Made by a program: the position numbers and the translations under genes. From the NCBI GenBank assembly GCA_900234795.1, contig LT962688.1:2010001-2042000 (forward strand): DNA of 32,000 nucleotides, written 5' to 3'. Shown one piece after another: positions 1 through 13,999 of the stretch (position 1 is the first letter of the stretch; every line of letters starts with the position of its first letter). The stretch is from Methylorubrum extorquens. Its GTDB lineage: Bacteria; Pseudomonadota; Alphaproteobacteria; Rhizobiales; Beijerinckiaceae. The notes under the pieces are model-generated. The model saw nothing but the letters and a program-made list of their open reading frames with translations, was not told the DNA's origin and searched no databases.

Positions 1-1
1 C

Positions 2-466
2 GGGCGTGCGCGGGCGGATGACGTCGAGCGCCTGGAGCGCTTCCAAGTGAACGAAGTGACGGGCTTTGCGCGCGCTATTTCGCGGGCCAATCCCAACTTG
101 CTGGAGACACCGGCGAATTTCTTGGAAGAGGTGGCTCGCGCCGCCCGCCATGTTATTCACCAGCCGACAGTCAAACAGCTTGAGCGTGGACTTGAGCCGC
201 AGACGGGGTGGCCGGAAGCGATCACGGCAGCGCAGGATCTTCTGTCTGTTGTCGAGGCAGCCCTCGAAAGCAATAGCTTGATCGTAGGCTGGCGGAAGCT
301 CTCGGCAGGCGCAAAGGTGGATCCGAGGGTCACCGATGCGTTGGGCCGCGTCATAGCCGAGATCCAGGATCCGGACGCGCTGGAGGCCTTTCTGGGGCTT
401 GCTGATAAGGAGGTGGCCGAGCCTTCAACTCCTGTCCTAGCGGGCCGCCTGCGATCCCACCCCTGA
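2..466 (+). CDS. hypothetical protein, 5-prime truncated by window edge
   Basis: The frame is open from base 2, so the GTG at 47 used in the ORF track is probably internal. Stop at 464-466. GC (about 60%) is lower than the rest of the window. No motif recognised. Confidence 0.5.
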   Translation, partial: GRARADDVERLERFQVNEVTGFARAISRANPNLLETPANFLEEVARAARHVIHQPTVKQLERGLEPQTGWPEAITAAQDLLSVVEAALESNSLIVGWRKLSAGAKVDPRVTDALGRVIAEIQDPDALEAFLGLADKEVAEPSTPVLAGRLRSHP

Positions 467-522
467 GCCGACCGACGATCGTTACGACGTCATACGCTCG
501 ACAAGCCGACACGACCCTCGAG

Positions 523-544
523 TTGTTCACAGCTTCGTGAACAA
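523..544. repeat. perfect 8-bp inverted repeat TTGTTCAC-N6-GTGAACAA
   Basis: Read directly from the sequence, 57 nt after the stop at 466. No T-tract follows, so it is either a weak terminator or an operator-like palindrome. Confidence 0.35.
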
Positions 545-785
545 GCCCTAGAGCGGTGCTGTCGGCCTCGCTGGCCGGCTCATCACCAAGACACGGAAAA
601 AGTGACACCGGGTAGCCGGACCTAGCATGGACGGTCCGATGCGCCCCACTCTCGGGCCTGATTTTCGCCTTTGCTGCCAAATCTCTCGGCTGCTTCGAGG
701 CGGGCTCAACTTTTGAAAGACTTTGTAGACAGGTCGCTGAGGTGTGACATCATGATCTAAGTCGAAATTAATTTGGGTCTGCCGC

Positions 786-953
786 ATGCTGTTCACACTA
801 GAAGACATCCCGCAGATGACGCCCCCTGTAAAGGAGCACCCGAGGCCGAAGGCGCGACGCAAAAGAGCACGCAAGCCGCAGCAACTCTGCCTGCTTGACC
901 TTCTCGCCCCGACAATGCTGGTGCCGAGGACGCATAAGCAGGTCATCAACTGA
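786..953 (+). CDS. possible small basic protein (55 aa), below the ORF-track cutoff
   Basis: ATG 786 to TGA 951-953. Translation: MLFTLEDIPQMTPPVKEHPRPKARRKRARKPQQLCLLDLLAPTMLVPRTHKQVIN. GC3 is about 74% within an AT-richer patch. It is followed 6 nt later by a GAGG-spaced GTG start. Confidence 0.3.
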   Translation: MLFTLEDIPQMTPPVKEHPRPKARRKRARKPQQLCLLDLLAPTMLVPRTHKQVIN

Positions 954-959
954 GGTTAG

Positions 960-1241
960 GTGACGCCAACAGTGGCGACTGGCGTCAACCGGATCCGCGT
1001 CGCTAACTGGCTGCTCTGGCTGCGCTTCCTCAAACGGGGCGGCGCCTGGCGGCTGCGCTGCATCCGTAAGGGGCGGCTCTCGGGCCGGATCCAGGGCACC
1101 GCCGAGGCGCCCGACGATCCTACCGCCGACGGGAGTGCCCGGTGCCGGATTTGCATCGCCGGGACCGGCTTCGCCGCGCTCTTTGAGCACTTCTTCTGGG
1201 GCGCGCGGGCCACGAGCCAGGGCGGGATCCCTGGCTTCTGA
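960..1241 (+). CDS. hypothetical protein (93 aa)
   Basis: GTG 960 is preceded by GAGG (953-956). Third-position GC is high. First-position G (about 37%) favours the plus strand over the antisense ORF 956-1213 that shares the same wobble positions. A hairpin follows at 1262-1284. Confidence 0.35.
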   Translation: MTPTVATGVNRIRVANWLLWLRFLKRGGAWRLRCIRKGRLSGRIQGTAEAPDDPTADGSARCRICIAGTGFAALFEHFFWGARATSQGGIPGF

Positions 1242-1261
1242 GCCTCGTCGGCGCCACCGAA

Positions 1262-1284
1262 GGGTCCGCACAGTCTGCGGGCCC
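1262..1284 (+). terminator. hairpin GGGTCCGCA-cagtc-TGCGGGCCC after ORF 960-1241
   Basis: 9-bp stem (one T-G wobble) and 5-nt loop, starting 20 nt after the stop. Only a weak T-rich tail (TTCATC) follows. Confidence 0.35.
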
Positions 1285-1327
1285 TTCATCACATCAAGGG
1301 GTTAGCCCCACCCAGGATACCTGCGGC

Positions 1328-1684
1328 ATGTTGCATATCATTTCTCCAGAGGACCGCCGCGCCGCCGAGCGCGACCGCCGGATCGCCCGTGCTCGGGCCG
1401 AGGCGCGCCCGTCCGCGCAGGCGCTCGTTGCCGAGGCCGGCCGCGCCGGGAACGGCGGCCCGCCCATGCTCGCCTCGGCGGCCGAGATCCGGGCGATCGG
1501 CGAGCTCCTCTACGGAAGGCGCTGGACGACCGAGCTCGCCGAGGCCCTTGGCGAGGACCCGCGCCAGGTCAGGCGCTGGCTCTCCGGCGAGGCCGCCGTT
1601 CCCGATCGGGCGGTCCGCTGGTCGCGCGAGGCCGCCCGGCGCCGGGCTCGGGAGATCCTCGCGCTCGTCGGCGACGAGGCCTAG
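1328..1684 (+). CDS. XRE/Cro-like helix-turn-helix protein (118 aa)
   Basis: High GC3. The segment GRRWTTELAEALGEDPRQVRRWLSGEAAVP fits the XRE HTH pattern (xxELAxxLGxxxxxVxxWxxGxxxP). It is paralogous to ORF 11316-11678. An alternative start at the internal Met (about aa 47) is possible. Confidence 0.6.
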   Translation: MLHIISPEDRRAAERDRRIARARAEARPSAQALVAEAGRAGNGGPPMLASAAEIRAIGELLYGRRWTTELAEALGEDPRQVRRWLSGEAAVPDRAVRWSREAARRRAREILALVGDEA

Positions 1685-2511
1685 AGCGCGAGGACGAGGG
1701 CGGGATCGAACGAGGGGTTTTCGAGCTCGACGATCCAGTCGCCGTTGCGCCGCCGGTGCGAGGTGTCGTGCCCGCGCGGGTTGGCGAGCACGCGCGTCCG
1801 GCCGACCCGATAATCCCTGCTCGCGTGCACGTGCCCGTGGATCCAGATGTCCGGCGCGTGCTCGCCCTTCAGGATCGAGGAGAGGTCCGAGGCGTAGGCC
1901 GCGTCGATGGGCTCGCGAACCTCGCCGTGCAGGAGCGACCTCGGGTGCGGCGCGTGATGCGTGACGACGATCCGTGGGCCGGCCCAAGGCTCCGCGAGGC
2001 GCCGCTCGATCCGGGCGCGGTGCTCCGCGTGGAGCGCTGCCGCGGCCGGCGGCCGGAACGGGGCGGGCGTCCCGAGCCGGTCGCGGCACTGGATGCGGCG
2101 GTGATCCCGCATGCCGACCTGCCGGTCCCCGGCGACCCGCATCGCGAGCGCCCGATGCTCAGCGCCCGCGACGGCGTAGTCGGTCCACATCGTGGCCCCG
2201 ATGATTTCGACCCCGTCGACGTGCCGGGCCTGCCCGCAATCGAGCAAGGTGATGTCGTGCTCGATGGCGGCGTCCCGGCCCCGGGAGATCTCGTCGGGCA
2301 GGCGGCAGCGCCAGAGGTCGTGATTGCCGGGGATGTAGACGACGGCCCGCGCGCGCGGGCGGACATGCTCGGCCAGCCACGGGATGGAGCGCCGGGTCAA
2401 CCCGTCGGCGACGTCGCCGGCGACGATCGCCAGGTCGACCCGCGGCCCCGGCGGCGGCGTCCACGGGCTCGCGTCGATGTGCAGGTCGCTCAGGATCCAG
2501 ACACTCGGCAT
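1681..2511 (-). CDS. calcineurin-like metallophosphoesterase (276 aa)
   Basis: All five MPE motifs are present: LSDLHID, AGDVAD, PGNHD, VVTHHAP, HGHVH. Start trimmed from the track ORF to ATG 2511 (MPSVWILSDLH). Its start shares one nt with the upstream gene's stop (TGATG). Confidence 0.85.
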   Translation of the reverse strand: MPSVWILSDLHIDASPWTPPPGPRVDLAIVAGDVADGLTRRSIPWLAEHVRPRARAVVYIPGNHDLWRCRLPDEISRGRDAAIEHDITLLDCGQARHVDGVEIIGATMWTDYAVAGAEHRALAMRVAGDRQVGMRDHRRIQCRDRLGTPAPFRPPAAAALHAEHRARIERRLAEPWAGPRIVVTHHAPHPRSLLHGEVREPIDAAYASDLSSILKGEHAPDIWIHGHVHASRDYRVGRTRVLANPRGHDTSHRRRNGDWIVELENPSFDPALVLAL

Positions 2512-2843
2512 CACTCGCTCCCCTCGCACCACGCCGTCCCATCCGCCTCGAACCAGGCCGCGGCCGCCCGCACGACGACCCGCCCATCGCACCTGAAGCC
2601 CGGCTCCTCGACCCGGTACCGGAGCCGTCGCGCGCCCGCCGGCCGGGGCAGGTCGGAGAGCTCGCCCGACGCCCAGGCATGGACGTCCCGAGCCCCGGAC
2701 CGCAGGCACCGGATCCGGGCCGCCTCTCTCGCCCGGAACGTCGCGCCGACGAGGGCGACGTCGAGCCGGTGGCCGACGACCCGTCCGCATTCCCGGACGC
2801 TCCAGAGTCGCCGCGACCGGTTACGGTAGACCTCAACTGCCAC
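2511..2843 (-). CDS. hypothetical protein (110 aa)
   Basis: ORF with high GC3. Its stop overlaps the phosphoesterase start, and it overlaps the upstream gene by 11 nt. No domain recognised. Confidence 0.6.
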   Translation of the reverse strand: MAVEVYRNRSRRLWSVRECGRVVGHRLDVALVGATFRAREAARIRCLRSGARDVHAWASGELSDLPRPAGARRLRYRVEEPGFRCDGRVVVRAAAAWFEADGTAWCEGSE

Positions 2844-3453
2844 CGGCGATCCGCCTGCCGTTCGCGTGCTCCTGGCAGAGGCAGCGCAGCCACCCGCCCT
2901 GTCGGATCCGGCCTGGGCGCCCGCACTCCTCGCAGATGAAGGCGGACAGGTGCTCGACGCTGTCTACTAGGGACTGCGTGTATTCGTAGTCGTCGCTGCA
3001 GTCGTAGTACCATCGAATACTGCCGAATTTCTCCTTCGCCTGTGTCGTGCGGAACCCGGCCGGAACGCCGCGCTCCTGCAGGACCTCGGCCGCCGCTTCC
3101 CATAGCCAGCGCCATCCGCCGCCGCACTCGAACGGGCTGTCCCGGAAGACGACGCGGTGGCGCCGGCCGAGCTTCTCAGCCCAGTCGGGCGGGCAGCGGG
3201 GCGCGCCATCGCGCCAACGGCAGGCGAGCACGCGGGCGAGCAGGTCGAGGAGGAACGGGCCGGGGACCGGGCCGACGAACGTCGCGCCCCCGGGCTGCTC
3301 GGTGCGCTCGCGCTCTACGGCGAGGAGCGGTGCGCACCAGCGCGCGAGCGGGCCGTGCGGCGAGGGCTCGACGGCCACCACCGTGGCGCTGTCCGCGCCG
3401 CGGTGGTGGCGCAGGGCCGGGCCGGCGATGTTGAGGAATTCTTCGGCGATCAT
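2833..3453 (-). CDS. hypothetical protein (206 aa) with Cys/His-rich C-terminus
   Basis: Start trimmed to ATG 3453 (MIAEEFLNIAG), which forms an ATGA overlap with the upstream gene. The C-terminus carries KEKFGSIRWYY and FICEECGRPG...WLRCLCQEH, a putative zinc-binding motif. Confidence 0.65.
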   Translation of the reverse strand: MIAEEFLNIAGPALRHHRGADSATVVAVEPSPHGPLARWCAPLLAVERERTEQPGGATFVGPVPGPFLLDLLARVLACRWRDGAPRCPPDWAEKLGRRHRVVFRDSPFECGGGWRWLWEAAAEVLQERGVPAGFRTTQAKEKFGSIRWYYDCSDDYEYTQSLVDSVEHLSAFICEECGRPGRIRQGGWLRCLCQEHANGRRIAGGS

Positions 3454-3677
3454 AGCGGCGGCTCCGGCGGCAGGGGGGCGAGGCAGAAGGCGAGGGCTTC
3501 GGTCTCCAGCGTGAGGCGGAGGCCGACGGCGGGATCGAGCCGGCCGGCCTCGACGAGGCGGCTGATGCGGACGACGCGGGCGCGGCAGCCGCGGCCGACG
3601 AGGCTGCAGATCCGGCCGCTCTCCCAGGCGGCCTGGATCCGGGAGGCGATCGCGTCGAGGGGTTCGGTGCTCTCCAT
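3450..3677 (-). CDS. hypothetical protein (75 aa)
   Basis: Strong RBS AAGGAGAGAGAG upstream of ATG 3677. ATGA overlap with the next gene. Confidence 0.55.
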   Translation of the reverse strand: MESTEPLDAIASRIQAAWESGRICSLVGRGCRARVVRISRLVEAGRLDPAVGLRLTLETEALAFCLAPLPPEPPL

Positions 3678-3728
3678 GGGGCTCTCTCTCCTTCCTGTTG
3701 GCGTGCTGGGGAGGTCCGCGGATCCGTT

Positions 3729-3995
3729 TCACGACCTCTCCTCCCGCGGCTGGCGGCGGTCGTCCGGATTTGCGGGCAGCGCCTCGGCGAGGCGGGTCAC
3801 GGCCTGGCAGAGCAGCCGGGCGTCCGACGGCGCGTAGAGGCCGAGGGCGTACGCGCGGGCCCCGAGCTGCAGGATCGCGACCGCGCACGTGGCCAGCTCG
3901 GGCCGGACGAGGCCCGAGCTGTCGCGGCCGCGCACCTGCGAGAGGGCGGCGTCGAGGACGGGCAGGCGGGCGCGGGTCGGGCGTTGGGCGGTCAT
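3729..3995 (-). CDS. hypothetical protein (88 aa)
   Basis: Trimmed to the internal ATG 3995 (MTAQRPTRARL), which is preceded by GGAGAC. The upstream extension in the track is R/P-rich and overlaps the ATPase gene. Confidence 0.5.
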   Translation of the reverse strand: MTAQRPTRARLPVLDAALSQVRGRDSSGLVRPELATCAVAILQLGARAYALGLYAPSDARLLCQAVTRLAEALPANPDDRRQPREERS

Positions 3996-4036
3996 GACGG
4001 TCTCCGGGCGTGAGGGGGAGTAGGCGAAGGGGAAGG

Positions 4037-5701
4037 TCAGTGCCGGGGCGCGAAGGTTTCGCGGCTCGCGAGGACGGCCTCGACCATGCGGCGGAGCGGG
4101 CGCAGGCTGCCGCCTCGCCATGCCGTGAGGGCGTCGAGCTCATCACCCGAGAGCGATGGGCACCACACGTCGTCGAGGCCGCGCTCGCGCCGGAGCTCGG
4201 CGAGGATCGCGGCGGCGGCGACGGGCAGGTCCTCCGCCCGCGGTGCCGGCCACTGCAGGACCTGACAGCGGTCGCGCAGCGGGCCGGCGAGCCCGTCGAG
4301 CGAGTTGGCGGTCAGGACGTACGAGACGGCCGACAGGTCGAGGGCGCACTCGAAGGCCGGGTCGAAGATCGCCTTCGCCGTGCTGCCCCGCTCCAGGAAG
4401 GGCAGCAGGGTCTCGTCGAGGCGGCCCCATCGCCGGCTGTCGCCTGCCTTCTCGACCTCGTCGACCACCACGCCGTGGTTCGCCTTGCCTAGCCGCAGGC
4501 ATGCCTGGGCCGGCACGGACGGACGCCAGGATCCCCATTGACGCGATGTTCCGGCCCAGCTGCCGCCGTCCATCTGGCCTGCACCGCCGTAGACGGTGAC
4601 GTCGAGCCCGGCCGCCTCCAGCACCGCTCGGGCGAACGCCGTCTTCCCGCAGCCTGCCGGGCCGACGAGGATGCGCGGCGAGAACCGAGCGAAGGGGGCG
4701 CCGACGAGGTCGGCCGCGTAGGCCTCGATCGCCTCGGCCGCCCACGGGAAGCGGACGCGCAGGCCCTCGGCGAAGGCGGACGGATCGGGCGCCGGCGTGA
4801 GCGGCATCGGCTTGCCAGCCCACGGCTCCGCGAGCGCGCGCGGGCTGTCGCCCCGGTCACGGATGGACTTCGGGGGCTCGGGAAGATGCGTCATCACGGG
4901 GATGACCGGCATCGAAAGCGCCGGCCGGGCGGCCTTCGCCTCGGTAAGGATCGACTCGACCGTGCGTGCCGGCGCCGCCTCGGGCGCGGGCAGTCCGAAG
5001 TCGAAGTCCAGGTCGCCGTCCTGCACGGCCGCGGCCTGCTGCCCGGCGCCGCCGCGCAGGATTGCGTCCTCATCTTCGACCATCCGGAGCGCAGCCCCGA
5101 AGACGGTGAAGGCCTGGATCCAGGCGGCCGCCTCGACGTCGAACGTCTCCAGCCTGGGGTAGCTCGGCCCGGGCACGTAGGGGACATCCCGCGCGGTGCA
5201 CTGTGCATCCTCGGCCCGCAGGAGCGCGTGCCGGGTCACGAGGAACGCCCGGTCGAACAGGCGGGCTCGGACCTGCGCGGCCGCCATCGAGAACAGCTCG
5301 GCCGCGAGCCGGGCGCTCGCGACCTCGCAGCCGAGCTCCGCCTGATGGAAGACGAGGACACCGGCGACGTCCCGCACGAGGGCCATCGTCGGGGTCGGCA
5401 GGCTCGCGCGGAGGGCCTCACCGGTGAGGCGCCGCTCCAGGTCGGCGATCCGGCCGACCGTGGCGTCCTCGAAGGCGGCGGTCACCGCGGCGTGCGTGCG
5501 GTCGCGCAGGCCCGGCGCGCCGAGGAGCGGCTGCAGGCGCAGGCGCAGATCGGCGACGGCGTCGTGCCCGGCCATGCCGCCCCCGTACAGGAGCTGCACC
5601 CGGGTGCGGGTGCCCTGCCCGTCGCGGGGGCCGGCGTAATCGCGCGGATCGAGGATGACGGCGCGCACGGCGGCGGCCGACGACGAGGCGTTCTTGGGCA
5701 T
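4037..5701 (-). CDS. AAA+ ATPase with Lon-type ATPase module, no protease domain (554 aa)
   Basis: Walker A is GPAGCGKT and Walker B is VVVDEVEKA. The stretch DLSAVSYVLTANSLDGLAGPLRDRCQVL is collinear with the Lon AAA+ module (DLS..F..TAN....P.PLRDRME.I). The protein ends about 90 aa after this, so there is no room for a protease domain. The N-terminal 340 aa or so are unrecognised. Confidence 0.85.
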   Translation of the reverse strand: MPKNASSSAAAVRAVILDPRDYAGPRDGQGTRTRVQLLYGGGMAGHDAVADLRLRLQPLLGAPGLRDRTHAAVTAAFEDATVGRIADLERRLTGEALRASLPTPTMALVRDVAGVLVFHQAELGCEVASARLAAELFSMAAAQVRARLFDRAFLVTRHALLRAEDAQCTARDVPYVPGPSYPRLETFDVEAAAWIQAFTVFGAALRMVEDEDAILRGGAGQQAAAVQDGDLDFDFGLPAPEAAPARTVESILTEAKAARPALSMPVIPVMTHLPEPPKSIRDRGDSPRALAEPWAGKPMPLTPAPDPSAFAEGLRVRFPWAAEAIEAYAADLVGAPFARFSPRILVGPAGCGKTAFARAVLEAAGLDVTVYGGAGQMDGGSWAGTSRQWGSWRPSVPAQACLRLGKANHGVVVDEVEKAGDSRRWGRLDETLLPFLERGSTAKAIFDPAFECALDLSAVSYVLTANSLDGLAGPLRDRCQVLQWPAPRAEDLPVAAAAILAELRRERGLDDVWCPSLSGDELDALTAWRGGSLRPLRRMVEAVLASRETFAPRH

Positions 5702-6080
5702 TGGGGGAGCTCGCAGGTACGGAAGGCGGGATGCGCGAAGGGCACCGAGCGGGTGGCTCAGGCGGCGGCGTTCCGTTTCCGTATCAAGCGAGCGGTCATC
5801 ACGGCGGGGGCGATCCCTGGCGAGTGGAGGGTCACGATGCCCTGGGCCCGACCCCGTGTCGAGCCGTTCCGTGCCGCGGGCTGTGGACGCCTCGCGGGCT
5901 GGTCAACGGGCGGTGAACCGGACCGCGCGAATCCGTCCGATCGCCCGCTGGACAATATGTCGCACCGGGCTCCGCCCCCGCTGGGACGCCTCTTCCCTCT
6001 AGGGGCCGCCCTTACGAATCAGGCCCGCTGCGAGATTTCGCGTACAGAGTCCAGTGCGAATCGCTGACGTGCGCTACCCT

Positions 6081-6092
6081 GATCCCGGGATC
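6081..6092. promoter_or_regulatory. 12-bp perfect palindrome GATCCCGGGATC, 18 nt upstream of the first gene of the plus-strand array
   Basis: Read directly. It lies in the 408-nt divergent intergenic region between the two operons. A role as an operator is inferred only. Confidence 0.25.
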
Positions 6093-6109
6093 ACGGGACG
6101 GGGTGGGAC

Positions 6110-6748
6110 ATGGCGCGAGTGCCGGAGTTCGTCGTGACGGGGGTGCACATCCCCCGGGTACATTTCTGGGCGCGGGTGCTTGTCGAGCCCGAGCGCCTGC
6201 AGCAAGTGAAGGACCTCGCCCTCCGGCAGGGGCAGATCTTCCTGAACCCGGGCGAGGTCCTTCAGGTCGACACCAGCGGGACACGCGAGAGGGAGCGGGC
6301 GCTCACGGTGTCGGGCTTCGAAACCGACACGCCCCGGCTGACCTGCCTCGTCGCATGGAACGAGATCGCGGGCGACATCACGATCTACGGAGACGACACG
6401 GACGACCTCCCGGTCATCGCCAGGTCTGTCGAGATCGCGCTCACCGGGATGGCCGCAGCGCAAGGGGGCGTGGCACTTCGCTTCGAGGGACTGACCTCGA
6501 TCCAGGTCGGGGACGTGCAGGTCTTCTTCCCCCGCAAGGAGGTAGAGGAGTTGAGCCCCGAGAGCGTGCTCAACCAGATCGAGGAGGAGCGGAGCTACTT
6601 CCGGTCGCGGGGGCATGCCTACCCGCCGGACGCCGCCGACGAGCCGGCCGCGCAGGATCCCGATCGCTATCCGTCGTCGGTCCTGAAGGCGGGTGAGAAG
6701 CTGCGGGCCCCGCGCGGCACCGCCATCCGCTCGGGGCGGTCGGCATGA
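6110..6748 (+). CDS. hypothetical protein (212 aa), first gene of the overlapping array
   Basis: ATG 6110 is preceded by GGGGTGGGA. High GC3. ATGA overlap with the next gene. Confidence 0.65.
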   Translation: MARVPEFVVTGVHIPRVHFWARVLVEPERLQQVKDLALRQGQIFLNPGEVLQVDTSGTRERERALTVSGFETDTPRLTCLVAWNEIAGDITIYGDDTDDLPVIARSVEIALTGMAAAQGGVALRFEGLTSIQVGDVQVFFPRKEVEELSPESVLNQIEEERSYFRSRGHAYPPDAADEPAAQDPDRYPSSVLKAGEKLRAPRGTAIRSGRSA

Positions 6749-6969
6749 CCCGGGCCTCGATCCCGCCCGAGCTGCGGGCCCGCCTGCACGCGAGGTTCCC
6801 CAAGTCGCCGCTGTGGGCGCCGGTCACCGAGCCGGCCCCTTCGCTGTGGGAGGTCATCCGCGCGGTGCTCGCCCGGGGCCGCGCCGACGGCCTCGACGAC
6901 GTGCAGCTCGCGGCCGGCGTCTACACCGCCCTGGTGAGCCATGGCCTGATGGACGGGGGGCGCGCGTGA
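6745..6969 (+). CDS. hypothetical protein (74 aa)
   Basis: ATGA overlap upstream and GTGA overlap downstream. High GC3. Confidence 0.55.
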   Translation: MTRASIPPELRARLHARFPKSPLWAPVTEPAPSLWEVIRAVLARGRADGLDDVQLAAGVYTALVSHGLMDGGRA

Positions 6970-7298
6970 TCGAGCTCTTCGACAAGCGACCTCGGAAGCT
7001 CGACATAATCGGGTTCAGCACCAACCGGTGGTCTGAGCCCGGCGGCGGCTCCGAGGGCGGCAGGGTCACCCTGGAGTAAAGGGACGGCGGCCGCGTCCGC
7101 TGCAGTCTTGAGGAGAAGGACCTCTGCTACCTCGACGACCTCGGCGCGCAGGTCCTCGCCGGCAGCCGGTACGAGCAGCTGCAGGCCGAGCACACAGCCC
7201 TGTGGCAGTTCGTGCAGGCGGCCTTCCCGGGCTTGAAGCTCACGGTCACCGAGGAGGCCGGCAAGCCGGTCTTCAGCCTGCACAGGAAGCCGGCATGA
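6966..7298 (+). pseudogene. ORF interrupted by an in-frame TAA (7077-7079); about 110 codons if read through
   Basis: GTG 6966 forms a GTGA overlap upstream. The same frame keeps strong GC3 bias after the TAA up to TGA 7296-7298, which forms an ATGA overlap with the next gene. There is no ATG/GTG/TTG in that frame until GTG 7212. Confidence 0.45.
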
Positions 7299-7543
7299 GC
7301 CGCGCCTTCTATGCCCTGACCCGGCCGAAGCAGATCGCCTTCCGCAGCGCCGTCGTCGGCATGCGGGACGGCCGCGCCCCCGAGGCGGCCCGGGAGGCCT
7401 GGGCCGCCCTCGACATCGGGGAGCATGCCCTCGACCGGACGCACGTGCTCGACCTCTTCGACATCGCCGAGGAGCGGCTCGCCCTCGTGCCGCCGGGGGA
7501 GCGCGAGCCGATCGCGGCCGCCCTGCTGGGAGGCTGCCCGTGA
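7295..7543 (+). CDS. hypothetical protein (82 aa)
   Basis: Trimmed to ATG 7295 (MSRAFYALTRPKQ). 4-nt overlaps on both sides. Confidence 0.55.
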   Translation: MSRAFYALTRPKQIAFRSAVVGMRDGRAPEAAREAWAALDIGEHALDRTHVLDLFDIAEERLALVPPGEREPIAAALLGGCP

Positions 7544-7707
7544 GCACGACCGACATGGTCCTCCTCGCCTCGGGCTGCCTCCTCATCATGGCGACATCGA
7601 TCGTCTACCTGGCCGCCCTCGTCGAGGGGCACCGCCCCCCGCTGAAGGGGCGCCTCGACGCCCTCATCCAGGCCGTCGCCGCGAAGAAGAAGGGGCCCTG
7701 CCCGTGA
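7540..7707 (+). CDS. small predicted membrane protein (55 aa), below the ORF-track cutoff
   Basis: GTG 7540 forms a GTGA overlap. Translation: VSTTDMVLLASGCLLIMATSIVYLAALVEGHRPPLKGRLDALIQAVAAKKKGPCP. It has one hydrophobic helix followed by a basic tail. GTGA overlap downstream. Confidence 0.45.
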   Translation: MSTTDMVLLASGCLLIMATSIVYLAALVEGHRPPLKGRLDALIQAVAAKKKGPCP

Positions 7708-8192
7708 CGGAGAGCGAAGCCGAGTTCATCCGGATGGTGGACGAGGGGGAGGCTGCGGCCCTCCGCGACCTGGAGGCGATGGACCCGGAGAAGCTCCGGG
7801 CAGCGATCCGCGAGTTCCGCACCCCGGCATTCATCCCGTGGTCCCTGGAGCCGCCGTCGCCGCAAATCGAAATCGAGAAGGCCCCGGCGGGCGAGCTGCC
7901 GGCGGTCGGATCGTTCTGGGGCTGGGGGGGGGCGATGGCCGATAGGTACATGCAGCGCAAGCAAGCCGACGTCGCCCTCGGGCTGGACGTATTCGCCATG
8001 GGCGAGGCGGCCGACGGCCTTCTACGGCCGCGAGACAAGGTCTTGGTCGCAGCCAGCGAGACGACCTGCCCCCGCGAGAAGCGGGCGCTGGCCGAGCTGG
8101 CGCAGGACATCGAGACCCTGCGGGAGCGCGTGCGGGCGGCCAAGAACCGGATGGCGGCCCGGCGCCGGCAGGCGGCCGAGACGGAGGCCTGA
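7704..8192 (+). CDS. hypothetical protein (162 aa)
   Basis: Trimmed to GTG 7704 (GTGA overlap). High GC3. Contains a G9 homopolymer at 7924-7932. Confidence 0.55.
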   Translation: MTESEAEFIRMVDEGEAAALRDLEAMDPEKLRAAIREFRTPAFIPWSLEPPSPQIEIEKAPAGELPAVGSFWGWGGAMADRYMQRKQADVALGLDVFAMGEAADGLLRPRDKVLVAASETTCPREKRALAELAQDIETLRERVRAAKNRMAARRRQAAETEA

Positions 8193-8193
8193 C

Positions 8194-8781
8194 ATGACCG
8201 ACGTCACCATTGAACGCCGCCCCGATCCGAAGGCCGAGCTCGGGTACGTCTGCCCCGGGTGCGAGCAGTGGTCCCCGGTCGGGCTCTGGAAGGAGAGCGA
8301 GGTCGGCTGCGAGGACTGCGGTAGCCACAGCGCCATGCGCTGCCCGCTCTGCGAGGCAGACCATGACGAGATCTACACCGACTTCGAGGATGCCGACGGC
8401 TTCCTGGAGCGCGAGGCGGCCACCCGGGGGCCCGGCCCCGCCGAGCAGATCCTCGACCTGGAGCGGCAGGTCGCGAGCCTGAAGGACCACGCGGGCACGC
8501 TGGAGGCCTTCCTCAAGGCGGCCGACGACCGGACCCGGACGGCGAAGGCCGAGGCGGAGGTCTCCAAGCGCGAGGCGACGGCCCTGCGGACCGCGTGGCT
8601 CCGCGCCGTCGGCGGCCGGCTGCTCTGGCGCCCGGACCTCATCGTCGCGCTGTCCGAGACCACGACCGACATGCGGCTGCGGCTCGACGAACTCGACGAG
8701 GCGGACGCCGGGTGCCGGCTCTCCGCGATGGAAGCCGAGTACGGACCCTTCATCCCTGCCGAGGCCGAGGAGGCCGCCTGA
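8194..8781 (+). CDS. zinc-ribbon plus coiled-coil protein (195 aa)
   Basis: The N-terminus has CPGC-x17-CEDC-x9-CPLC. The C-terminal half is Ala/Glu/Leu/Arg-rich and looks helical. The start is 1 nt after the previous stop. Confidence 0.6.
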   Translation: MTDVTIERRPDPKAELGYVCPGCEQWSPVGLWKESEVGCEDCGSHSAMRCPLCEADHDEIYTDFEDADGFLEREAATRGPGPAEQILDLERQVASLKDHAGTLEAFLKAADDRTRTAKAEAEVSKREATALRTAWLRAVGGRLLWRPDLIVALSETTTDMRLRLDELDEADAGCRLSAMEAEYGPFIPAEAEEAA

Positions 8782-8783
8782 CC

Positions 8784-9206
8784 GTGGCGAACTACACCTA
8801 CTTCCGCGTGGCGATGACCGGGCCGGCCGACGACCTCGCCGCGTTCCAGAGCCGGCACGTGCGCCCGAACGACCGGGGCGACCGCTACATCGACTTCCAG
8901 ACCCTGATCCCGACGGCGGAGCCGTGCCCGGAGGTCTGGGGCAGCTTCACGATCGGCTACGAGTTCGAGATCGCCTCGGAGAGCCCCGGGCAGGTCGAGT
9001 TCACCTTCTCCGTGCGTGGCGGCGACGCGGCTCCGATCCTGCGCGAGATCGCCCGGCGCTACCCCGACGTGACGGCGGTCATCGCCTGCGAGGAAGAGGG
9101 CGGCTCCTACGCGGCGACCGGTGCCATGCAGGCCGGCGAGCTAACCTACGAGCGGCAGCCTTGGTCCGAGGCAGTCTGGGAAGCGGTTCACGGGGAGACC
9201 TTCTGA
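8784..9206 (+). CDS. hypothetical protein (140 aa)
   Basis: GTG 8784 is 2 nt after the previous stop (alternative ATG at about 8814). High GC3. No confident domain call. Confidence 0.5.
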   Translation: MANYTYFRVAMTGPADDLAAFQSRHVRPNDRGDRYIDFQTLIPTAEPCPEVWGSFTIGYEFEIASESPGQVEFTFSVRGGDAAPILREIARRYPDVTAVIACEEEGGSYAATGAMQAGELTYERQPWSEAVWEAVHGETF

Positions 9207-9368
9207 CATGACCCTCTGGCACAAGCCCGCCTACACCCGAAGCTCCGCGCGGCGGCGCGCCTGCGGGATTCGAGCGTCCGCGCCACGCTCGACGGGGGCT
9301 GGGACCTCGCTGGGCAGCGGGTCTTCATCGCCACCCCGGAGCAGGCCTCCTTCTTCCGGGCGGTCGCG

Positions 9369-9605
9369 ATGAAGGAGCCGCCCCCGCCGCCGAAGCCCGA
9401 GCAATCCTACGAGGAGGCCGCGGCCGAGCTCGCGAGCAACATGGAGAAGGAAGCGCGGGGCCTCGCGCTGGAGATGGGGCGGTCCCTCACCGCTCCGAAG
9501 CCGCCCCCACGCCCGGAGCCCCCCGGTGCGACGAGGCATCCCTTCATCGGGGCCAACCGGGCGCAGCGCCGGGCGGCCGAGACCAGGGCGAGGAGGCAGG
9601 CGTGA
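9369..9605 (+). CDS. hypothetical Pro-rich protein (78 aa from ATG 9369); coding signal extends upstream to about 9237 with no start codon
   Basis: The same frame is open back to the TGA at 9204-9206. It has about 95% GC3 from 9237 to 9368 but no ATG/GTG/TTG. ATG 9208 lies in the +1 frame. See finding. Confidence 0.5.
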   Translation: MKEPPPPPKPEQSYEEAAAELASNMEKEARGLALEMGRSLTAPKPPPRPEPPGATRHPFIGANRAQRRAAETRARRQA

Positions 9606-9724
9606 GCGAGACGCGGAAGCACACCCAGCTCGGGTTCTCGGTCATCGTCATGCGTGGCACCGGGCCGATGGCCCGCGCCGCCCTGGAGGCGATCGGCCTG
9701 CCCTCGATGTCGAGGAGCTCGTGA
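9602..9724 (+). CDS. possible small protein (40 aa), below the ORF-track cutoff
   Basis: GTG 9602 forms a GTGA overlap with the previous stop. High GC3. Its TGA 9722-9724 overlaps GTG 9721 of the next ORF. Confidence 0.35.
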   Translation: MSETRKHTQLGFSVIVMRGTGPMARAALEAIGLPSMSRSS

Positions 9725-9921
9725 TCGAGCAGAACGGTGGCGAGCTGGCGCTCGGTGGGATCGCCGTGTCCGAGAGCGACGCCCGGCTCGTCTACGCCGC
9801 CTGGCAATGCGACCCGCACCCGTTCCGCGACCTGCCGCCCGACCGCGAAATCGAGCGGATCCAGAGGTCCATAACCATCCGGCAGATGCTGGAACAGGCG
9901 AGCAGGGGAGAGCCAGCATGA
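9721..9921 (+). CDS. hypothetical protein (66 aa)
   Basis: Trimmed to GTG 9721 (VIEQNGGELALGG...). The upstream part of the track ORF is R/G/P-rich out-of-frame noise. ATGA overlap downstream. Confidence 0.45.
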   Translation: MIEQNGGELALGGIAVSESDARLVYAAWQCDPHPFRDLPPDREIERIQRSITIRQMLEQASRGEPA

Positions 9922-10397
9922 CCGAGACCAAGATCGCCGCCGCGCAGGAGGCCGTCGCCAAGGCGGCCGCCCTGCTCCTGGAACACGCCGAGGGGCTGGG
10001 CATGCTCGCCATGGTCGAGAGCCGGCGCGAGCCGCCGGACCTGATAGACACCGTCGCCTTCAGGAACGGCGAGACGGTCATCCGGAACGTCGCGGCCGAG
10101 CAGGCGTGGTCGCAGGCGGCGCTCGCAGCCGCGCGGTTCGCCGGGCGCTTCGAGGCGTTCCAGCAGGAGCGGGACCGCTATTCCGAGGTCGGCGTCACCC
10201 TGCGGGAGGAGGTCGAGAAGCTCGTGGGAGGCACCGGCAGCTTCCCCCCTCCGCTCTCGATGATGCCGGCCTCGGCCGGGCACGCCGCTCTCGGGATCAC
10301 CCCGCGCCAGGTCCACGCGCAGGCCTGGCGATCCCACCTCGCAGCTTCGGCCGCGACGATCGCGCGGGTCGAGATCGGGATGGGGTACGGCGCGTGA
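9918..10397 (+). CDS. hypothetical protein (159 aa)
   Basis: Trimmed to ATG 9918 (MTETKIAAAQEA). 4-nt overlaps on both sides. Confidence 0.55.
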   Translation: MTETKIAAAQEAVAKAAALLLEHAEGLGMLAMVESRREPPDLIDTVAFRNGETVIRNVAAEQAWSQAALAAARFAGRFEAFQQERDRYSEVGVTLREEVEKLVGGTGSFPPPLSMMPASAGHAALGITPRQVHAQAWRSHLAASAATIARVEIGMGYGA

Positions 10398-10807
10398 CGA
10401 AGGCAACCCTCACGCCGAACGGGGACGGCACGTTCGCCATGTCGACCGGCAGGCTGCATCTCAACCGGGTGGGGCTCCAGCCGGCCCCGGCATGGCTGGC
10501 TGCCCGGAAGCTGCAGGGCACGGTCACGGGCTTCGAGGACGCGGCCGACGGATCCTGGTCCGTCAAGCTGGACAACCTGCAGCCTGTCATCGAGACCGCC
10601 CCCAAGGCCGAGCAGCCCCCAAACCGGCCGGCCGAGTTCTGGTGGGTCGAGTGGTGCGAGGGCATGCCGCTGGAGCCGGCGCGCATCTCGTTCCTCGGCG
10701 AAGAGCCGACCTGGATCGACCAGCTCGGCGGCGACGCCGGCGAGCGGCTCGACGAGACCGGCACTCGCTTGGTCGAGCGGATCCTGCCCCCGGGCGTGAC
10801 GGCCTAG
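10394..10807 (+). CDS. hypothetical protein (137 aa), last gene of the array
   Basis: Trimmed to GTG 10394 (GTGA overlap). Trp-rich segment EFWWVEWCEG. Its TAG stop shares a CTAG with the convergent minus-strand gene. Confidence 0.55.
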   Translation: MTKATLTPNGDGTFAMSTGRLHLNRVGLQPAPAWLAARKLQGTVTGFEDAADGSWSVKLDNLQPVIETAPKAEQPPNRPAEFWWVEWCEGMPLEPARISFLGEEPTWIDQLGGDAGERLDETGTRLVERILPPGVTA

Positions 10808-11166
10808 CGCCCCCCGCGCTCCCGCGCCTGCAGGGCCTCCTCGACGAGCTCGGCGACCCGCTGCCCGGCGGCGCTGGCGAGCTTCTCCCGCGCGGCGACG
10901 ATGCGCATGCGGTCGCCCGGCGCGGCGACGACGAGATCGCCGTTGGCGTGCAGGCGGACGGTGACGACGAGGTCCCCCTCGGGCCCGGCTACCTCGCCGA
11001 TGTCCCTGGCAAGGGCATCGCGATAAGCCTCGGCCTCCCGGACCTCCCGATCGTCCGGCGAGCGGCCGTCATCGCGCAGACGTGCCAGCCTGTCCTCCGT
11101 CTCGGCCAAGGCCTGCCGCATCCGCCGCAGCGTCCCCAGGCGGACCTCCTCTCGCAGCTCGCTCAT
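10804..11166 (-). CDS. hypothetical coiled-coil-like protein (120 aa)
   Basis: Trimmed to ATG 11166 (MSELREEVRLG), preceded by GGAGGGG. The long upstream extension in the track (to 12018) is R/P/A-rich shadow sequence. Confidence 0.55.
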   Translation of the reverse strand: MSELREEVRLGTLRRMRQALAETEDRLARLRDDGRSPDDREVREAEAYRDALARDIGEVAGPEGDLVVTVRLHANGDLVVAAPGDRMRIVAAREKLASAAGQRVAELVEEALQARERGGR

Positions 11167-11227
11167 GTGCCCCTCCATGCCGGAGGCAGACTCGCGCGGG
11201 CCGACCCGGCGGGCAAGCCCGGCCGGG

Positions 11228-11278
11228 TGCGCATAAGGCCGGCCCGTGGGCGTCAGGACGTCATATCCTGCGCATAAG
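11228..11278. promoter_or_regulatory. direct repeat TGCGCATAAG x2 (11228-11237, 11269-11278) bracketing inverted repeat CAGGA-N7-TCCTG
   Basis: Read directly. It lies in the 149-nt gap between the HTH-like gene and the 120-aa gene. This is a locally AT-richer motif in GC-rich DNA. Confidence 0.3.
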
Positions 11279-11315
11279 CGGGCCAGACGCGGGATGTCTT
11301 GAACGTAAGGGAGGG

Positions 11316-11678
11316 TCAGGCCGGCGGCCCCGGCAGGGCGTCGACATCCTCCTGCGGAGCGGCCGACCAGTCCGCGCGGATCCGGTCGGCTCGGCGCACG
11401 AGGTCGGCGGCGATCCGCATGGCCAGCTGCTGCAGGGGCTCGACCAGCGACTCGGGCACCGGCCGCACGCCGAGAACCCAGTGCGAGACCTGCGCCTGCC
11501 CGACGCGGCGGCCCGCCTCCTGCGACAGGGCGGCCGCGAGGTCGGACTGCCAGCGCGGCCCGAAGGCGAGCTCGCCTAGCGTGACGACGCCCTGTCGCAC
11601 GAGGATCTGCCGATCGGTCAGGCCGGAGAGGTCGACCTTGGGCTCGCGGCGCGGGGGCTTGGGTGGCGAGAGGGTCAC
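11316..11678 (-). CDS. XRE/Cro-like helix-turn-helix protein (120 aa), paralogue of 1328-1684
   Basis: Trimmed to GTG 11678, preceded by AGGAGC plus a 5-nt spacer. The segment LGELAFGPRWQSDLAAALS...VSHWVLGVRPVPESLV aligns with IGELLYGRRWTTELAEALG...VRRWLSGEAAVPDRAV. Confidence 0.55.
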   Translation of the reverse strand: MTLSPPKPPRREPKVDLSGLTDRQILVRQGVVTLGELAFGPRWQSDLAAALSQEAGRRVGQAQVSHWVLGVRPVPESLVEPLQQLAMRIAADLVRRADRIRADWSAAPQEDVDALPGPPA

Positions 11679-11776
11679 GGGGGGCTCCTGATGTCGGGCG
11701 GTGGAAGGGGGCGGCCTGAGGCCCGTGCGAGGCCGGCGGGATCCGCGAGGGCGCGGCGCCGGCCCCGAGGCGGGCA

Positions 11777-12199
11777 TCAGACCGTGAGTTGGGACAGGGC
11801 GACCTCGTCGACGGCGAGCTCGCGAGCACGCTTGCGCGCAGCTGCAGCTGTCTTCTTCTCGACGCGGTCGATGCGTGCCTCCAGGGCACGTCCCTCGACG
11901 CAGGGGTCGACGCCGGGCACCGTCTCCCGGATGCGGGCAGCCTCCGCACGCGTGAGTATCGTGGCGACGAGGCTCTGACGGGGGCCGATCTTCGAGACCT
12001 GGACGCGCAGGCCGGCATCCCGGCAGGCGGCGATCAGGCTATCGCGGCTGTCCCGGTAGCGGCCGCCGTAGCGGGCGGCGCTCCCCTTCAGGTCCGACCC
12101 GGCCCACGAGGCCCAGCCGTTGATCAGGGATTTCTGGTAGTCCCCCTTGCAGACCGAGAGGGCGATCTTGTGGGCGGTGGCGGTGGCGATGGTCGACAT
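11777..12199 (-). CDS. hypothetical protein (140 aa)
   Basis: ATG 12199 with GGAG 9 nt upstream. High GC3. No domain recognised. Confidence 0.6.
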   Translation of the reverse strand: MSTIATATAHKIALSVCKGDYQKSLINGWASWAGSDLKGSAARYGGRYRDSRDSLIAACRDAGLRVQVSKIGPRQSLVATILTRAEAARIRETVPGVDPCVEGRALEARIDRVEKKTAAAARKRARELAVDEVALSQLTV

Positions 12200-12229
12200 C
12201 TGGGAGGCTCCAGCGGTTGGGTGAAGGAT

Positions 12230-12252
12230 GGGACCGGGGGGAGCCCGGTCCC
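12230..12252 (-). other. intercistronic hairpin GGGACCGGG-N5-CCCGGTCCC
   Basis: Perfect 9-bp GC stem between the 75-aa and 140-aa genes. No U-tract, so it is more likely an mRNA processing/stability element or an attenuator than a terminator. Confidence 0.4.
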
Positions 12253-12259
12253 GCTGTCC

Positions 12260-12487
12260 TCAGAGGGCGTTGACGTCGGCGCCGCGTTCGGCGGTGGCCA
12301 TCCGGCCGGCGGCGGAGAGGGCGATCGAGGTCTCCTCGGTGTAGAAGGCGGAGCCGAAGCCCGGCTTGCCCTCGACGTGGCGAGCGTCGTCGGCGCAGTA
12401 GTCGACGCGGAACTCGGCGTTGGCGCCGTCGTAGGAGGCCTGGAGGCCGAGGGCGCGGATCTCGGTGAGGGTCTGCTGGATCGCCAT
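12260..12487 (-). CDS. hypothetical protein (75 aa)
   Basis: ATG 12487. The leader CCAACCCCGGAGCCTCCC-ATG is nearly identical to the leader of the next gene. High GC3. Confidence 0.55.
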   Translation of the reverse strand: MAIQQTLTEIRALGLQASYDGANAEFRVDYCADDARHVEGKPGFGSAFYTEETSIALSAAGRMATAERGADVNAL

Positions 12488-12541
12488 GGGAGGCTCCGGG
12501 GTTGGTGGTCCGGGGCCCTGTCTCTCGCCCCGTTGATAGTT

Positions 12542-12569
12542 AATATACTACCAGCGACGGCGAATGCAA
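12542..12569 (-). promoter_or_regulatory. candidate sigma70-type promoter TTGCAT-N16-TATATT (minus strand)
   Basis: An AT-rich island (TAGTATATTAACTATCAAC on the minus strand) 55-80 nt upstream of ATG 12487. The hexamers were read directly; promoter function is inferred. Confidence 0.35.
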
Positions 12570-12710
12570 GGGCTCGGTAGTGGAATTTCTACCGAAAAGG
12601 TGCGGCATTCCGCGCAGGGGTGCGGCACGGCGCGATCGGCCCGGCCGCGCGGGCTGGCGCGACGACGGGGCTTGGTTCTGTCAGCGGGACTTGAGCGACT
12701 GTCTTGCTGG

Positions 12711-13640: not shown

Positions 13641-13870
13641 CTGATCCCATCCTTGCGCAAGCGGGCTTCGCGTTGAGCGGCCCAAGCGACTGTTCGGGTT
13701 CGATGGAACGGCGGGCGAGGACCCTGGCTCACTTGCGGGCTTGGTGGCCCCAGAGGCTAACGGTCTCTCACCCGCCACCGCGCCGAGGAGCATACCCCGC
13801 GAGGTTGGGATCAAGTTACAAGAGGCTGGATCCGTGACCGCCAGCCCGGTCCCGTTTCAAGCGGGACCGC
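13641..13870 (-). ncRNA. candidate bridge (guide) RNA region of the IS110 element
   Basis: Inferred from position only: it is the non-coding end upstream of the recombinase, as in the IS110 subgroup. Local stems are visible: palindrome CTTGCGCAAG 13652-13661, GGTGGC...GCCACC 13743-13779, and CGGTCCCG-N7-CGGGACCG 13847-13869. Confidence 0.3.
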
Positions 13871-13947
13871 CGCGTCGCCGACCACCCTGCCGGGGCTTCC
13901 CGAGCGGGGATTTCGCACGTTTCGGGACCAGTAACGGGACCAACGAC

Positions 13948-13967
13948 AAAAGCCGCCCTGAGGCGGC
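13948..13967 (-). terminator. rho-independent terminator of tRNA-Gly
   Basis: On the minus strand: GCCGCC-tcag-GGCGGC followed by TTTTG, about 33 nt downstream of the tRNA 3-prime end. Confidence 0.6.
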
Positions 13968-13999
13968 CCTGCTAAGTCGTTGAACTTGGTTGGGAAAAC

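Follow-up and report, generated by a model that had tools for sequence, protein, structure and literature searches.

A six-gene operon in Methylorubrum extorquens

The DNA analysed here, which we call the window, is a stretch of 32,000 nucleotides of Methylorubrum extorquens (assembly GCA_900234795.1, contig LT962688.1, positions 2,010,001 to 2,042,000, forward strand). Our study concerns a block of six minus-strand genes in it, which encode in the order of transcription a Lon-type AAA+ ATPase, four smaller proteins termed g88, g75, g206 and g110, and a metallophosphoesterase (MPE) (Table 1). Together with its relatives, this block is well supported as a conserved operon of a temperate-phage lineage of the Methylobacteriaceae, centred on a Lon-type translocase without protease. 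An initial annotation, based on the letters of the window alone, had described six genes running head to tail and had proposed that they form an uncharacterised system with the architecture of anti-phage defence.

Since the GC content of the window is about 73%, coding frames become visible as a third-position GC content (GC3) of about 0.9. In a frame plot the six open reading frames show GC3 values of 0.86 to 0.97 exactly in their frames, and the public annotation of identical DNA agrees on all six products, with lengths of 554, 88, 75, 206, 110 and 276 amino acids (aa); together with the translation, these data confirm the gene order and the coordinates. The ATPase stop (4037) is separated from the g88 start (3995) by 41 nt, and the g88 stop (3729) from the g75 start (3677) by 51 nt. 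The overlaps that had been noted as coupling the last four genes can be read directly from the sequence: an ATGA of 4 nt between g75 and g206, 11 nt between g206 and g110, which starts with GTG, and a TGATG with 1 nt shared between g110 and the MPE gene. A search of positions 1200-6300 for sigma-70 and intrinsic-terminator consensus sites found none, and hence none inside the operon, which is weakly informative at 73% GC.

Table 1. Features of the window and recognised defence systems at related loci. Positions refer to the window unless a related locus (L) is named.
Feature	Position	Strand	Basis
Lon-type AAA+ ATPase, no peptidase domain, 554 aa	4037..5701	-	GC3 frame, Pfam AAA, PDB Lon
g88, 88 aa, alternative small partner after the ATPase	3729..3995	-	GC3 frame, public gene call
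g75, 75 aa, commonest small partner of the ATPase	3450..3677	-	GC3 frame
g206, two-domain Cys-rich protein, 206 aa	2833..3453	-	Alignment invariants, AlphaFold2 (AF2) model
g110, PF25735 (Mycobacterium phage L5 gp82 family), 110 aa	2511..2843	-	Pfam, PHROG
MPE, phrog_1649 type, 276 aa	1681..2511	-	PHROG, Pfam Metallophos, motifs
Divergent intergenic region, 408 bp, between the ATPase operon and plus-strand small genes	5702..6109	.	Gene map
Convergent helix-turn-helix (HTH) gene, 118 aa, phrog_3626-like	1328..1684	+	PHROG E 7e-11, weak Pfam HTH_3
Lamassu LmuC/B/A and Shedu SduA, between integrase and block	L001-L003/L067 2500-9100		
PDC-M02 A+B	L060/61; L060 6650-8300		
Type I CBASS cyclase and 2TM effector just downstream of the block; also a Tad2-like gene	L065 12690-14100, 15766-16200		
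Old/AriA-like ATPase and DUF2235, next to UmuDC	L026-L028 15800-19800		

A Lon-type ATPase without a peptidase domain

Sequence and predicted structure agree on the class of the ATPase. Residues ~340-550 correspond to the AAA+ module of Lon, with a phmmer match to sequences of the Protein Data Bank (PDB) at E 2e-13 over residues 345-545, and the Pfam family AAA is matched at E 1e-7. The AF2 model, built from a 22-sequence alignment (predicted local distance difference test, pLDDT, 84), consists of an all-alpha N-domain (residues 1-215), a disordered linker (218-259) and the AAA+ module (~260-550); the top 50 matches of this model in Foldseek are all Lon, the best at E 8e-14. Because the chain stops at residue 554, about five residues past the lid helix of the AAA+ module (H533-549), there is no room for a peptidase domain, and Pfam and NCBIfam gave no match to Lon_C or to any peptidase family. 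Pfam also gave no match to LON_substr_bdg, i.e. there is no LAN (PUA-like) domain, and the N-domain is all-helical in the model. The NCBIfam family 'lon' (TIGR00763) reaches 37 bits against a cut-off of 608. The description of the protein as a protease-less Lon-like ATPase was thus borne out.

Across 22 homologues the Walker A residue K353, the Walker B residues D414 and E415, the sensor-1 residues T464 and N466, and R478 and R534 are unchanged. The pore-loop residues R387 and W389 are invariant as well, and SRQW389 aligns with RRTY of Lon. Judged from its sequence, the ATPase looks like an active translocase, because all ATPase motifs and the pore-loop aromatic residue are invariant. The C-terminal half has diverged far more slowly than the N-terminal ~250 residues. 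The complete protein is 100% identical to one Methylorubrum extorquens protein, and a comparison with PHROG gave weak matches to clamp-loader families. Assignment to DnaC/DnaA, SF3, MCM, RuvB or ABC/SMC-like ATPases was considered and rejected, since the top sequence and fold matches are all Lon and the pore loop is of the Lon type.

Conservation of the operon in a temperate-phage lineage

Our scan of one genome per species revealed 58 loci, nearly all of them in Methylobacterium or Methylorubrum, to which the IMG/VR collection added six; flanks were limited to 10 kb, and the partner counts given here cover 45 distinct Methylobacteriaceae loci. The general order in relatives is an optional ~180-aa HTH or XRE HTH gene, the ATPase, one or two small proteins (g88, g75 or f37), an optional g206, and g110, after which a ~145-aa g75-like protein, the MPE and a small signal-peptide protein may each follow. 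The HTH protein of ~180 aa heads the operon in 23 of the 45 loci, and one locus carries a divergent small XRE gene. At least one partner lies directly downstream of the ATPase in all 45 loci, start and stop codons that overlap or all but touch are maintained across loci, and synteny persists to 35% ATPase identity. The best-conserved partner is g110 (34 of 45 loci), and g75 stands directly downstream of the ATPase in 29, a position that g88 takes in six; g206 is found in 19 loci and the MPE in 18, with two more on the other strand and none in 25. A small protein, g206, g110 and the MPE are combined in nine loci, and the exact six-gene form occurs solely in the window's own lineage. Co-occurrence of the genes as a block, which had been put forward as a test of the initial annotation, therefore holds as a conserved operon in 45 loci, but the composition of this operon is variable.

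Several neighbours in the related loci are genes of temperate phages, including a tyrosine integrase, a Bro-N/ANT antirepressor, XRE and HTH_3 regulators, GH108 and Phage_lysozyme endolysins, a phrog_704 repair exonuclease and a nucleoside deoxyribosyltransferase. Moreover, a fixed slot is filled by one of three large proteins, namely f13 (primase-polymerase-like, phrog_2478), f17 (phrog_4756) or f69/p553. On the IMG/VR contig 2551306471_000001, f13 is followed by genes for the small terminase (TerS), large terminase (TerL), portal and protease-capsid proteins (phrog_57, 15, 21 and 4523), which lie ~12 kb from the block. A phage satellite (PICI/P4-like) would combine an integrase, a primase or replicase and regulators without virion genes. 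In some loci, for example L047, where ~14 kb extend from the integrase to the primase-polymerase-like gene, no virion genes were seen within the 10-kb flanks, whereas other relatives have virion genes.

The same IMG/VR contig, of 69 kb, carries two divergent whole ATPase modules (L070/L075 and L071/L074), each with a primase-polymerase-like gene, and one of these copies adjoins lambda-like head genes. This arrangement suggests tandem prophages.

The metallophosphoesterase and its pairing with AAA+ ATPases

Five calcineurin-like metal-binding motifs can be read in the translation of the MPE (SDLHID, GDVADG, GNHD, THH and GHVH), and it scores above the curated cut-offs of PF00149 Metallophos (33.7 bits versus 21.5) and PF12850 (28.6 versus 27). 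The closest PHROG family is phrog_1649 (E 3e-36) and the best NCBIfam matches are TIGR03729 and CpdA; no SbcD/Mre11 family was among the Pfam or NCBIfam matches. The motif set is that of phosphodiesterases and nucleases, not that of PPP protein phosphatases. A PPP-type phosphatase like lambda NinI was rejected, as motif II (GDVADGL) lacks DRG, motif III reads GNHD and phrog_547 is matched at E 0.0014 only; similarly, an SbcCD-like reading of the MPE was ruled out by its motifs and by the class of its partner. Full-length homologues are present in 171 phage records, those inspected having genomes of 108-386 kb and being mostly jumbo or T4-like phages, and on 57 plasmids. On Polaromonas and Pseudomonas plasmids the MPE is accompanied by the BPSL0761 family.

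The AAA+ half of the ATPase family also occurs on alpha- and betaproteobacterial plasmids, and its linkage with the MPE extends beyond the phage lineage. On plasmids of Microvirga, Bradyrhizobium and Polaromonas, full-length MPE homologues with 38-45% identity (E 1e-41 to 1e-62) lie next to or near an ATPase gene. The homologue directly follows the ATPase in Microvirga terrae; in Bradyrhizobium japonicum it directly precedes it with an overlap of 4 nt, so that the order is reversed; and in Polaromonas it stands three small genes after it, the first of which carries the C-domain of g206. Furthermore, on Rhizobium leguminosarum pRlBT01c (L098 2082-4765) an MPE homologue overlaps by 4 nt the gene of a 639-aa AAA+ protein of the Cdc48/VCP/FtsH type (PDB E 9e-57), which is unrelated to the Lon-type ATPase beyond the P-loop. 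A linkage that recurs with permuted order, and with an analogous unfoldase as partner, is the best evidence in these sequences that an AAA+ unfoldase and a phrog_1649-type MPE may act as a functional pair.

The block as a likely part of the phage backbone

Recognised defence systems, identified with PADLOC and Pfam, flank the block and differ from locus to locus (Table 1). Because the block stays constant as these neighbours vary, our data point to a backbone-like module rather than to swappable cargo, albeit from small samples. Two entry points independent of the ATPase agree with this. All three g110 homologues that were picked blind to the ATPase have a protein of 530-570 aa one or two genes upstream, in the ATPase position, and Pfam AAA is on record for two of these three proteins. 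Likewise, the ATPase, g75 and g110 are all present in the three metagenome loci reached through f13 that are clear cases, having sufficient flank and a closely related f13. In a fourth f13 locus (L088), with flank on one side only, no ATPase, g75 or g110 was seen, distant f13 relatives from other biomes had no ATPase block, and the f13 entry in IMG/VR returned solely a contig that was already known. A setting in a defence island, for which the initial annotation had suggested a test, was not upheld: the region is a prophage in which the block behaves as backbone and the defence systems are the variable cargo.

The small proteins g88, g75, g206 and g110

Neither g88 (Pfam, PHROG, PADLOC and NCBIfam searches) nor g75 gave a family match. 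Both had been designated ORFans, but homologues of both are present in many Methylobacterium loci. The g88 frame continues without a stop to a further ATG upstream, at 4121 (window 3729-4121, 130 aa), a start that would overlap the 3' end of the ATPase gene by 85 nt; the start at 3995, giving 88 aa, is favoured because homologues measure 64-88 aa and because of the public gene calls.

The 206-aa protein was correctly described as Cys-rich but is no ORFan, since its C-terminal half belongs to a large unnamed family: in a library of 1.84 billion proteins the C-domain was found in 13,080 representative clusters at E<=1e-3. This domain (residues ~88-200; window 2833-3150), of ~110 aa, carries the motif GW…KEKFG.lRwY…CExCG.pG…W..C..H and is a putative zinc ribbon, with C174, C177, C193 and H196 invariant in the alignment. 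Most members of the family are free-standing proteins of 110-130 aa, some (P0212, P0227, P0233 and P0344) have two to four tandem repeats, and the domain is present in Lak and other jumbo phages; in a scan of ten representatives, no Pfam family was matched over this domain. The N-domain of g206 is confined to Methylobacteriaceae. In spite of a confident AF2 model of g206 (pLDDT 92.7, predicted template modelling score, pTM, 0.90), no fold neighbour was found in the PDB (best E 0.79), and comparison with BFVD returned uncharacterised phage proteins only. Profile searches of PDB sequences found no solved relatives of g206 or of g110.

The designation of the 110-aa protein as an ORFan had to be abandoned. 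It exceeds the cut-off of 27 for PF25735 (Phage_L5_gp82; 54.8 bits, E 1.1e-14) and matches phrog_586 at E 4e-14, and all 56 clusters of g110 homologues carry PF25735. Among phages, 546 records contain such a homologue, for the most part mycobacteriophages with the gene in their early right arm. The neighbourhoods of g110 and the MPE in mycobacteriophages and Rhizobium phages consist of hypothetical genes throughout, with no linked ATPase, and a literature search on L5 gp82 or PF25735 found nothing specific.

A DUF6634 gene recurs in the neighbourhood of these genes, before two MPE genes on a plasmid of M. extorquens CM4 (L102) and after g110 in another locus (L076, 7640-8068), and the protein P0269 is a fusion of DUF6634 to the g206 C-domain.

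The genomic island and its flanking operons

The operon belongs to an island (window ~1-14000) that abuts the 3' end of a tRNA-Gly gene (14000-14074). The tRNA and the insertion sequence (IS) that had been described as lying beside the operon are part of the same island, although at a distance of 7-8 kb and at its edge. This IS110-family element (12701-13821; transposase 12711-13814, NCBIfam transpos_IS110 E 2e-63) is located between the island and the tRNA and is missing from a strain (L059) that is otherwise 99.9% identical, in which the identical block also adjoins tRNA-Gly. In a second relative (L060) the block adjoins tRNA-Val; here 99.7% identity extends over window positions 1-6103 and the upstream genes are different, so that the two sequences form a mosaic with its breakpoint at 6103. 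No integrase or virion genes are within reach of the window or L060 copies, and a search of L059 and L060 for att sites did not find the 3' end of tRNA-Gly or tRNA-Val repeated. The copy in the window is a prophage remnant, as the integrase and virion genes are not within reach. In Rfam the tRNA is the sole structured RNA, and it is also the single match in a megablast search of the 14 kb against GenBank phages.

Upstream of the ATPase gene, the 408-bp region at 5702-6109 presumably carries the promoters of both divergent operons; these promoters are inferred only, because the search for sigma-70 consensus sites gave none. At 6080-6093 this region contains a perfect 14-bp palindrome, TGATCCCGGGATCA, which occurs nowhere else in the window and lies 16 nt 5' of the gene at 6110 that opens the plus-strand string. 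It is a possible operator, with the qualification that 19 of 100 shuffles likewise gave one match when two mismatches or fewer were allowed. On the plus strand, about 13 small and mostly overlapping ORFan genes (6110-10807) are transcribed away from the ATPase operon; four of them (p6745, p7202, p7540 and p7704) occupy the same place in related prophages, and no Pfam or PHROG function was found for any gene of the string.

The convergent HTH gene at the other end overlaps the MPE stop by 4 nt, and its position is kept in loci L001-3, L005, L007, L009, L011 and L012. A phrog_3626-like paralogue is encoded at 11316-11777 on the minus strand, so that the 3' end of each of the two divergent operons faces its own convergent HTH gene; the two may be regulators of the island. 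At the left edge, the reading frame at 47-466 (plus strand) is the C-terminal portion of a protein of 553 aa, the start of which lies outside the window (L060 15236-16897). This protein gave no family match and is ~30% identical to the f69 family of the slot for a large replication-type protein.

Comparison with known systems

Searches of PADLOC-DB v2 (dated 2023), which holds known as well as candidate defence systems, gave IetA as the best match of the ATPase at E 0.084 and no match for g88, g75, g206 and g110; the MPE matched PDC-S10 at E 3.9e-8 over its N-terminal 108 residues only. The view that the gene combination is no named system thus agrees with the lack of any system match in this database. 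In Pfam and NCBIfam there are no curated names beyond AAA, Metallophos and L5_gp82, and a literature search on Lon-like protease-less defence ATPases or on systems of an ATPase and a metallophosphoesterase found nothing specific.

The ATPase shares the AAA+ module with LonA and LonB, including Walker A and B, the sensor-1 'TAN', the arginine finger, sensor-2 and the aromatic pore loop 1. Unlike these, it has neither the S16 Ser-Lys peptidase domain nor the LAN N-domain, instead of which it carries a lineage-variable all-alpha N-domain, and its gene shares an operon of a phage or plasmid with that of an MPE. As in Gabija GajAB, PARIS AriAB, Old, Lamassu, IetAS and BREX BrxL, an NTPase is combined with a hydrolase on mobile elements, and such systems are even adjacent in relatives. 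However, the ATPases of those defence pairs are of the ABC, OLD or SMC type, whereas ours is a Lon-type AAA+ without a match to their profiles, and the hydrolase is a calcineurin-like MPE in place of Toprim, Cap4 or PD-(D/E)XK. BrxL retains a Lon-protease-like domain, which the 554-aa ATPase lacks.

A hydrolase of the MPE class that is genetically coupled to an ATPase and widespread in phages is also the hallmark of SbcCD, Mre11-Rad50 and T4 gp46-gp47, but their ATPases are ABC/SMC coiled-coil proteins, and the MPE described here belongs to phrog_1649 and not to the SbcD/gp47 family. In mycobacteriophages, L5 gp82 genes are among the small early right-arm genes and have no AAA+ or MPE neighbour, unlike g110, which is a member of this family above the curated cut-off. 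With the lambda cI-rexAB and PR cro-O-P-nin operons, the block has in common its place beside a divergent promoter region of a temperate phage, the HTH gene that often heads it and the MPE at its end; nevertheless, its proteins are not homologous to Rex, O, P or Nin, and the MPE lacks the GDxVDRG and GNHE of lambda phosphatase. Finally, with the phage calcineurin-like phosphodiesterases that have been predicted to be counter-nucleotide enzymes (T5 A1 orthologues; PMC7824862) our MPE has in common that it is a calcineurin-like enzyme which large phages carry as an accessory gene; it differs by its coupling to an AAA+ unfoldase. The block is outside every family that we tested, yet of familiar kinds, being either an ATPase-hydrolase pair or a phage early operon.

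Possible functions of the operon

Our tentative first choice, to which we would give somewhat less than even weight, is that the block is an early module which serves the phage or plasmid itself. It is favoured because the block behaves like backbone and because the MPE, g110 and the g206 C-domain are typical phage genes, also of virulent phages. In such a module, the 554-aa protein would assemble as a Lon-like hexameric, ATP-driven translocase or unfoldase without its own peptidase, and its variable helical N-domain, together with the co-translated g88 and g75 as possible adaptors, would select a target protein or nucleoprotein complex. The proteins g206, g110 and the MPE would act on the same target or pathway, with the MPE hydrolysing a phosphodiester that could be a nucleic-acid end or a nucleotide second messenger. 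Expression would probably be early after infection, induction or entry, so that a component of the host is remodelled or disarmed in the course of take-over or counter-defence, to the benefit of the phage or plasmid and not of the host. This is compatible with the proposal that phage calcineurin-like phosphodiesterases, the T5 A1 orthologues, are counter-nucleotide enzymes (Iyer et al. 2021, PMC7824862).

A number of observations speak against an early module. Its backbone character was deduced from three plus three loci, and most loci were found via the ATPase, which introduces an ascertainment bias. Either enzyme is often present without its counterpart: the MPE is missing from most class-II phage loci, stands alone in the 171 phage records, and has no AAA+ neighbour on many plasmids. 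The HTH-headed layout with a divergent XRE gene could equally belong to a lysogenic operon of the cI-rexAB type, and the persistence of an intact block in a remnant without integrase and structural genes hints at a benefit to the host. Moreover, known defence systems adjoin the block, and the N-terminus of the MPE weakly resembles PDC-S10.

Several of these points lead to the reading that we rank second and regard as possible but rather doubtful, namely that the block is a new prophage- or plasmid-borne system of defence against phages or other mobile genetic elements, expressed in the lysogen like lambda cI-rexAB. The N-domain of the ATPase would then sense a protein or DNA of the invader and activate or deliver the MPE as effector, with the small proteins as adaptors or inhibitors. 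An NTPase and a phosphoesterase in one translationally coupled operon, a variable N-domain on a conserved core, and carriage by prophages and plasmids beside Lamassu, Shedu, CBASS, Old-like and PDC-M02 systems would all suit a defence system, as would the HTH gene at the head of 23 of 45 operons, the survival of the block in a decayed prophage and the resemblance of the MPE N-terminus to the PADLOC candidate PDC-S10. So would the ATPase-MPE pair that recurs across genera in permuted order, with another AAA+ unfoldase as substitute in Rhizobium. On the other hand, neither the ATPase nor the four small proteins have a significant PADLOC match, the block is constant where recognised defence systems are the variable cargo, and an effector would be missing from the 25 of 45 loci that lack the MPE. 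The MPE, g110 and the g206 C-domain are, furthermore, common solitary genes of large virulent phages, which is unusual for defence effectors. The defence-type architecture that the initial annotation had stressed therefore gains from the pairing across genera, in reversed order too, and loses from the fact that three of the components are ordinary phage genes.

A role in replication or recombination, in which the ATPase is a DNA translocase, helicase or loader and the MPE an end-processing nuclease similar to Mre11/SbcD, appears improbable to us. The position of the block, as an HTH-first operon beside a divergent promoter region and the integrase-side operon, would correspond to that of O-P-nin in the lambda PR operon, the combination of ATPase and MPE follows the logic of SbcCD and T4 gp46/47, the MPE motifs are of the phosphodiesterase/nuclease and not the PPP type, and the ATPase has its weak clamp-loader matches in PHROG. 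Yet the ATPase is specifically Lon-like, the elements already possess a separate large replication-type protein (f13, f17 or f69), many loci do without the MPE, and no iterons or tandem repeats were found in or near the ATPase gene. The earlier alternative of a mobile-element module thus came nearer the mark, but no assignment to replication or recombination is possible.

That the genes have no joint function, and are separate phage 'morons' or early genes brought side by side through mosaic recombination and the compactness of phage gene organisation, is the least probable of the explanations that we considered, and a very unlikely one. It would account for the varying composition (g206 in 19, the MPE in 18 and g88 in 6 of the 45 loci), for the fact that the MPE, g110 and the g206 C-domain each occur alone elsewhere, on phages and plasmids, and for the overlapping start and stop codons, which are common in phage operons generally. 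It accords poorly with the partner kept directly downstream in 45 of 45 loci, with the ATPase-position protein next to g110 in all three independently chosen loci, and with the adjacency of ATPase and MPE in three other genera in different order and spacing, an analogous unfoldase taking this place in a fourth. The block is conserved and cannot be assigned to a known module, so that neither of the two outcomes that would have spoken against the initial proposal, i.e. a known-module assignment or a lack of joint conservation, was observed.

Either as defence or as counter-defence, the block could represent a two-enzyme conflict system of mobile elements, composed of a protease-less Lon-type (or Cdc48/FtsH-type) unfoldase, a phrog_1649-type MPE and small adaptors; we consider this a real possibility, if distinctly short of probable. 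In the form of counter-defence, the system would unfold an immune protein of the host and destroy its nucleotide signal or nucleic-acid product. Its adaptors would include a very abundant, unnamed zinc-ribbon domain without a close neighbour in the PDB.

Overall, the pairing of AAA+ ATPase and MPE is found on mobile elements of both alpha- and betaproteobacteria, and PADLOC-DB v2 (2023) contains no match to it. If the two enzymes cooperate, they would represent a new wiring of an AAA+ unfoldase to a phosphoesterase in the conflict between phages or plasmids and their hosts. This would also provide the first functional handle on the L5 gp82 family, on the phrog_1649 phosphoesterase and on the unnamed 'KEKFG zinc-ribbon' domain with its ~13,000 clusters. 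If the block is instead an ordinary early operon, it would be of more modest value, as a marker module of the temperate phages of Methylobacteriaceae with hot spots of known defence systems in its flanks.

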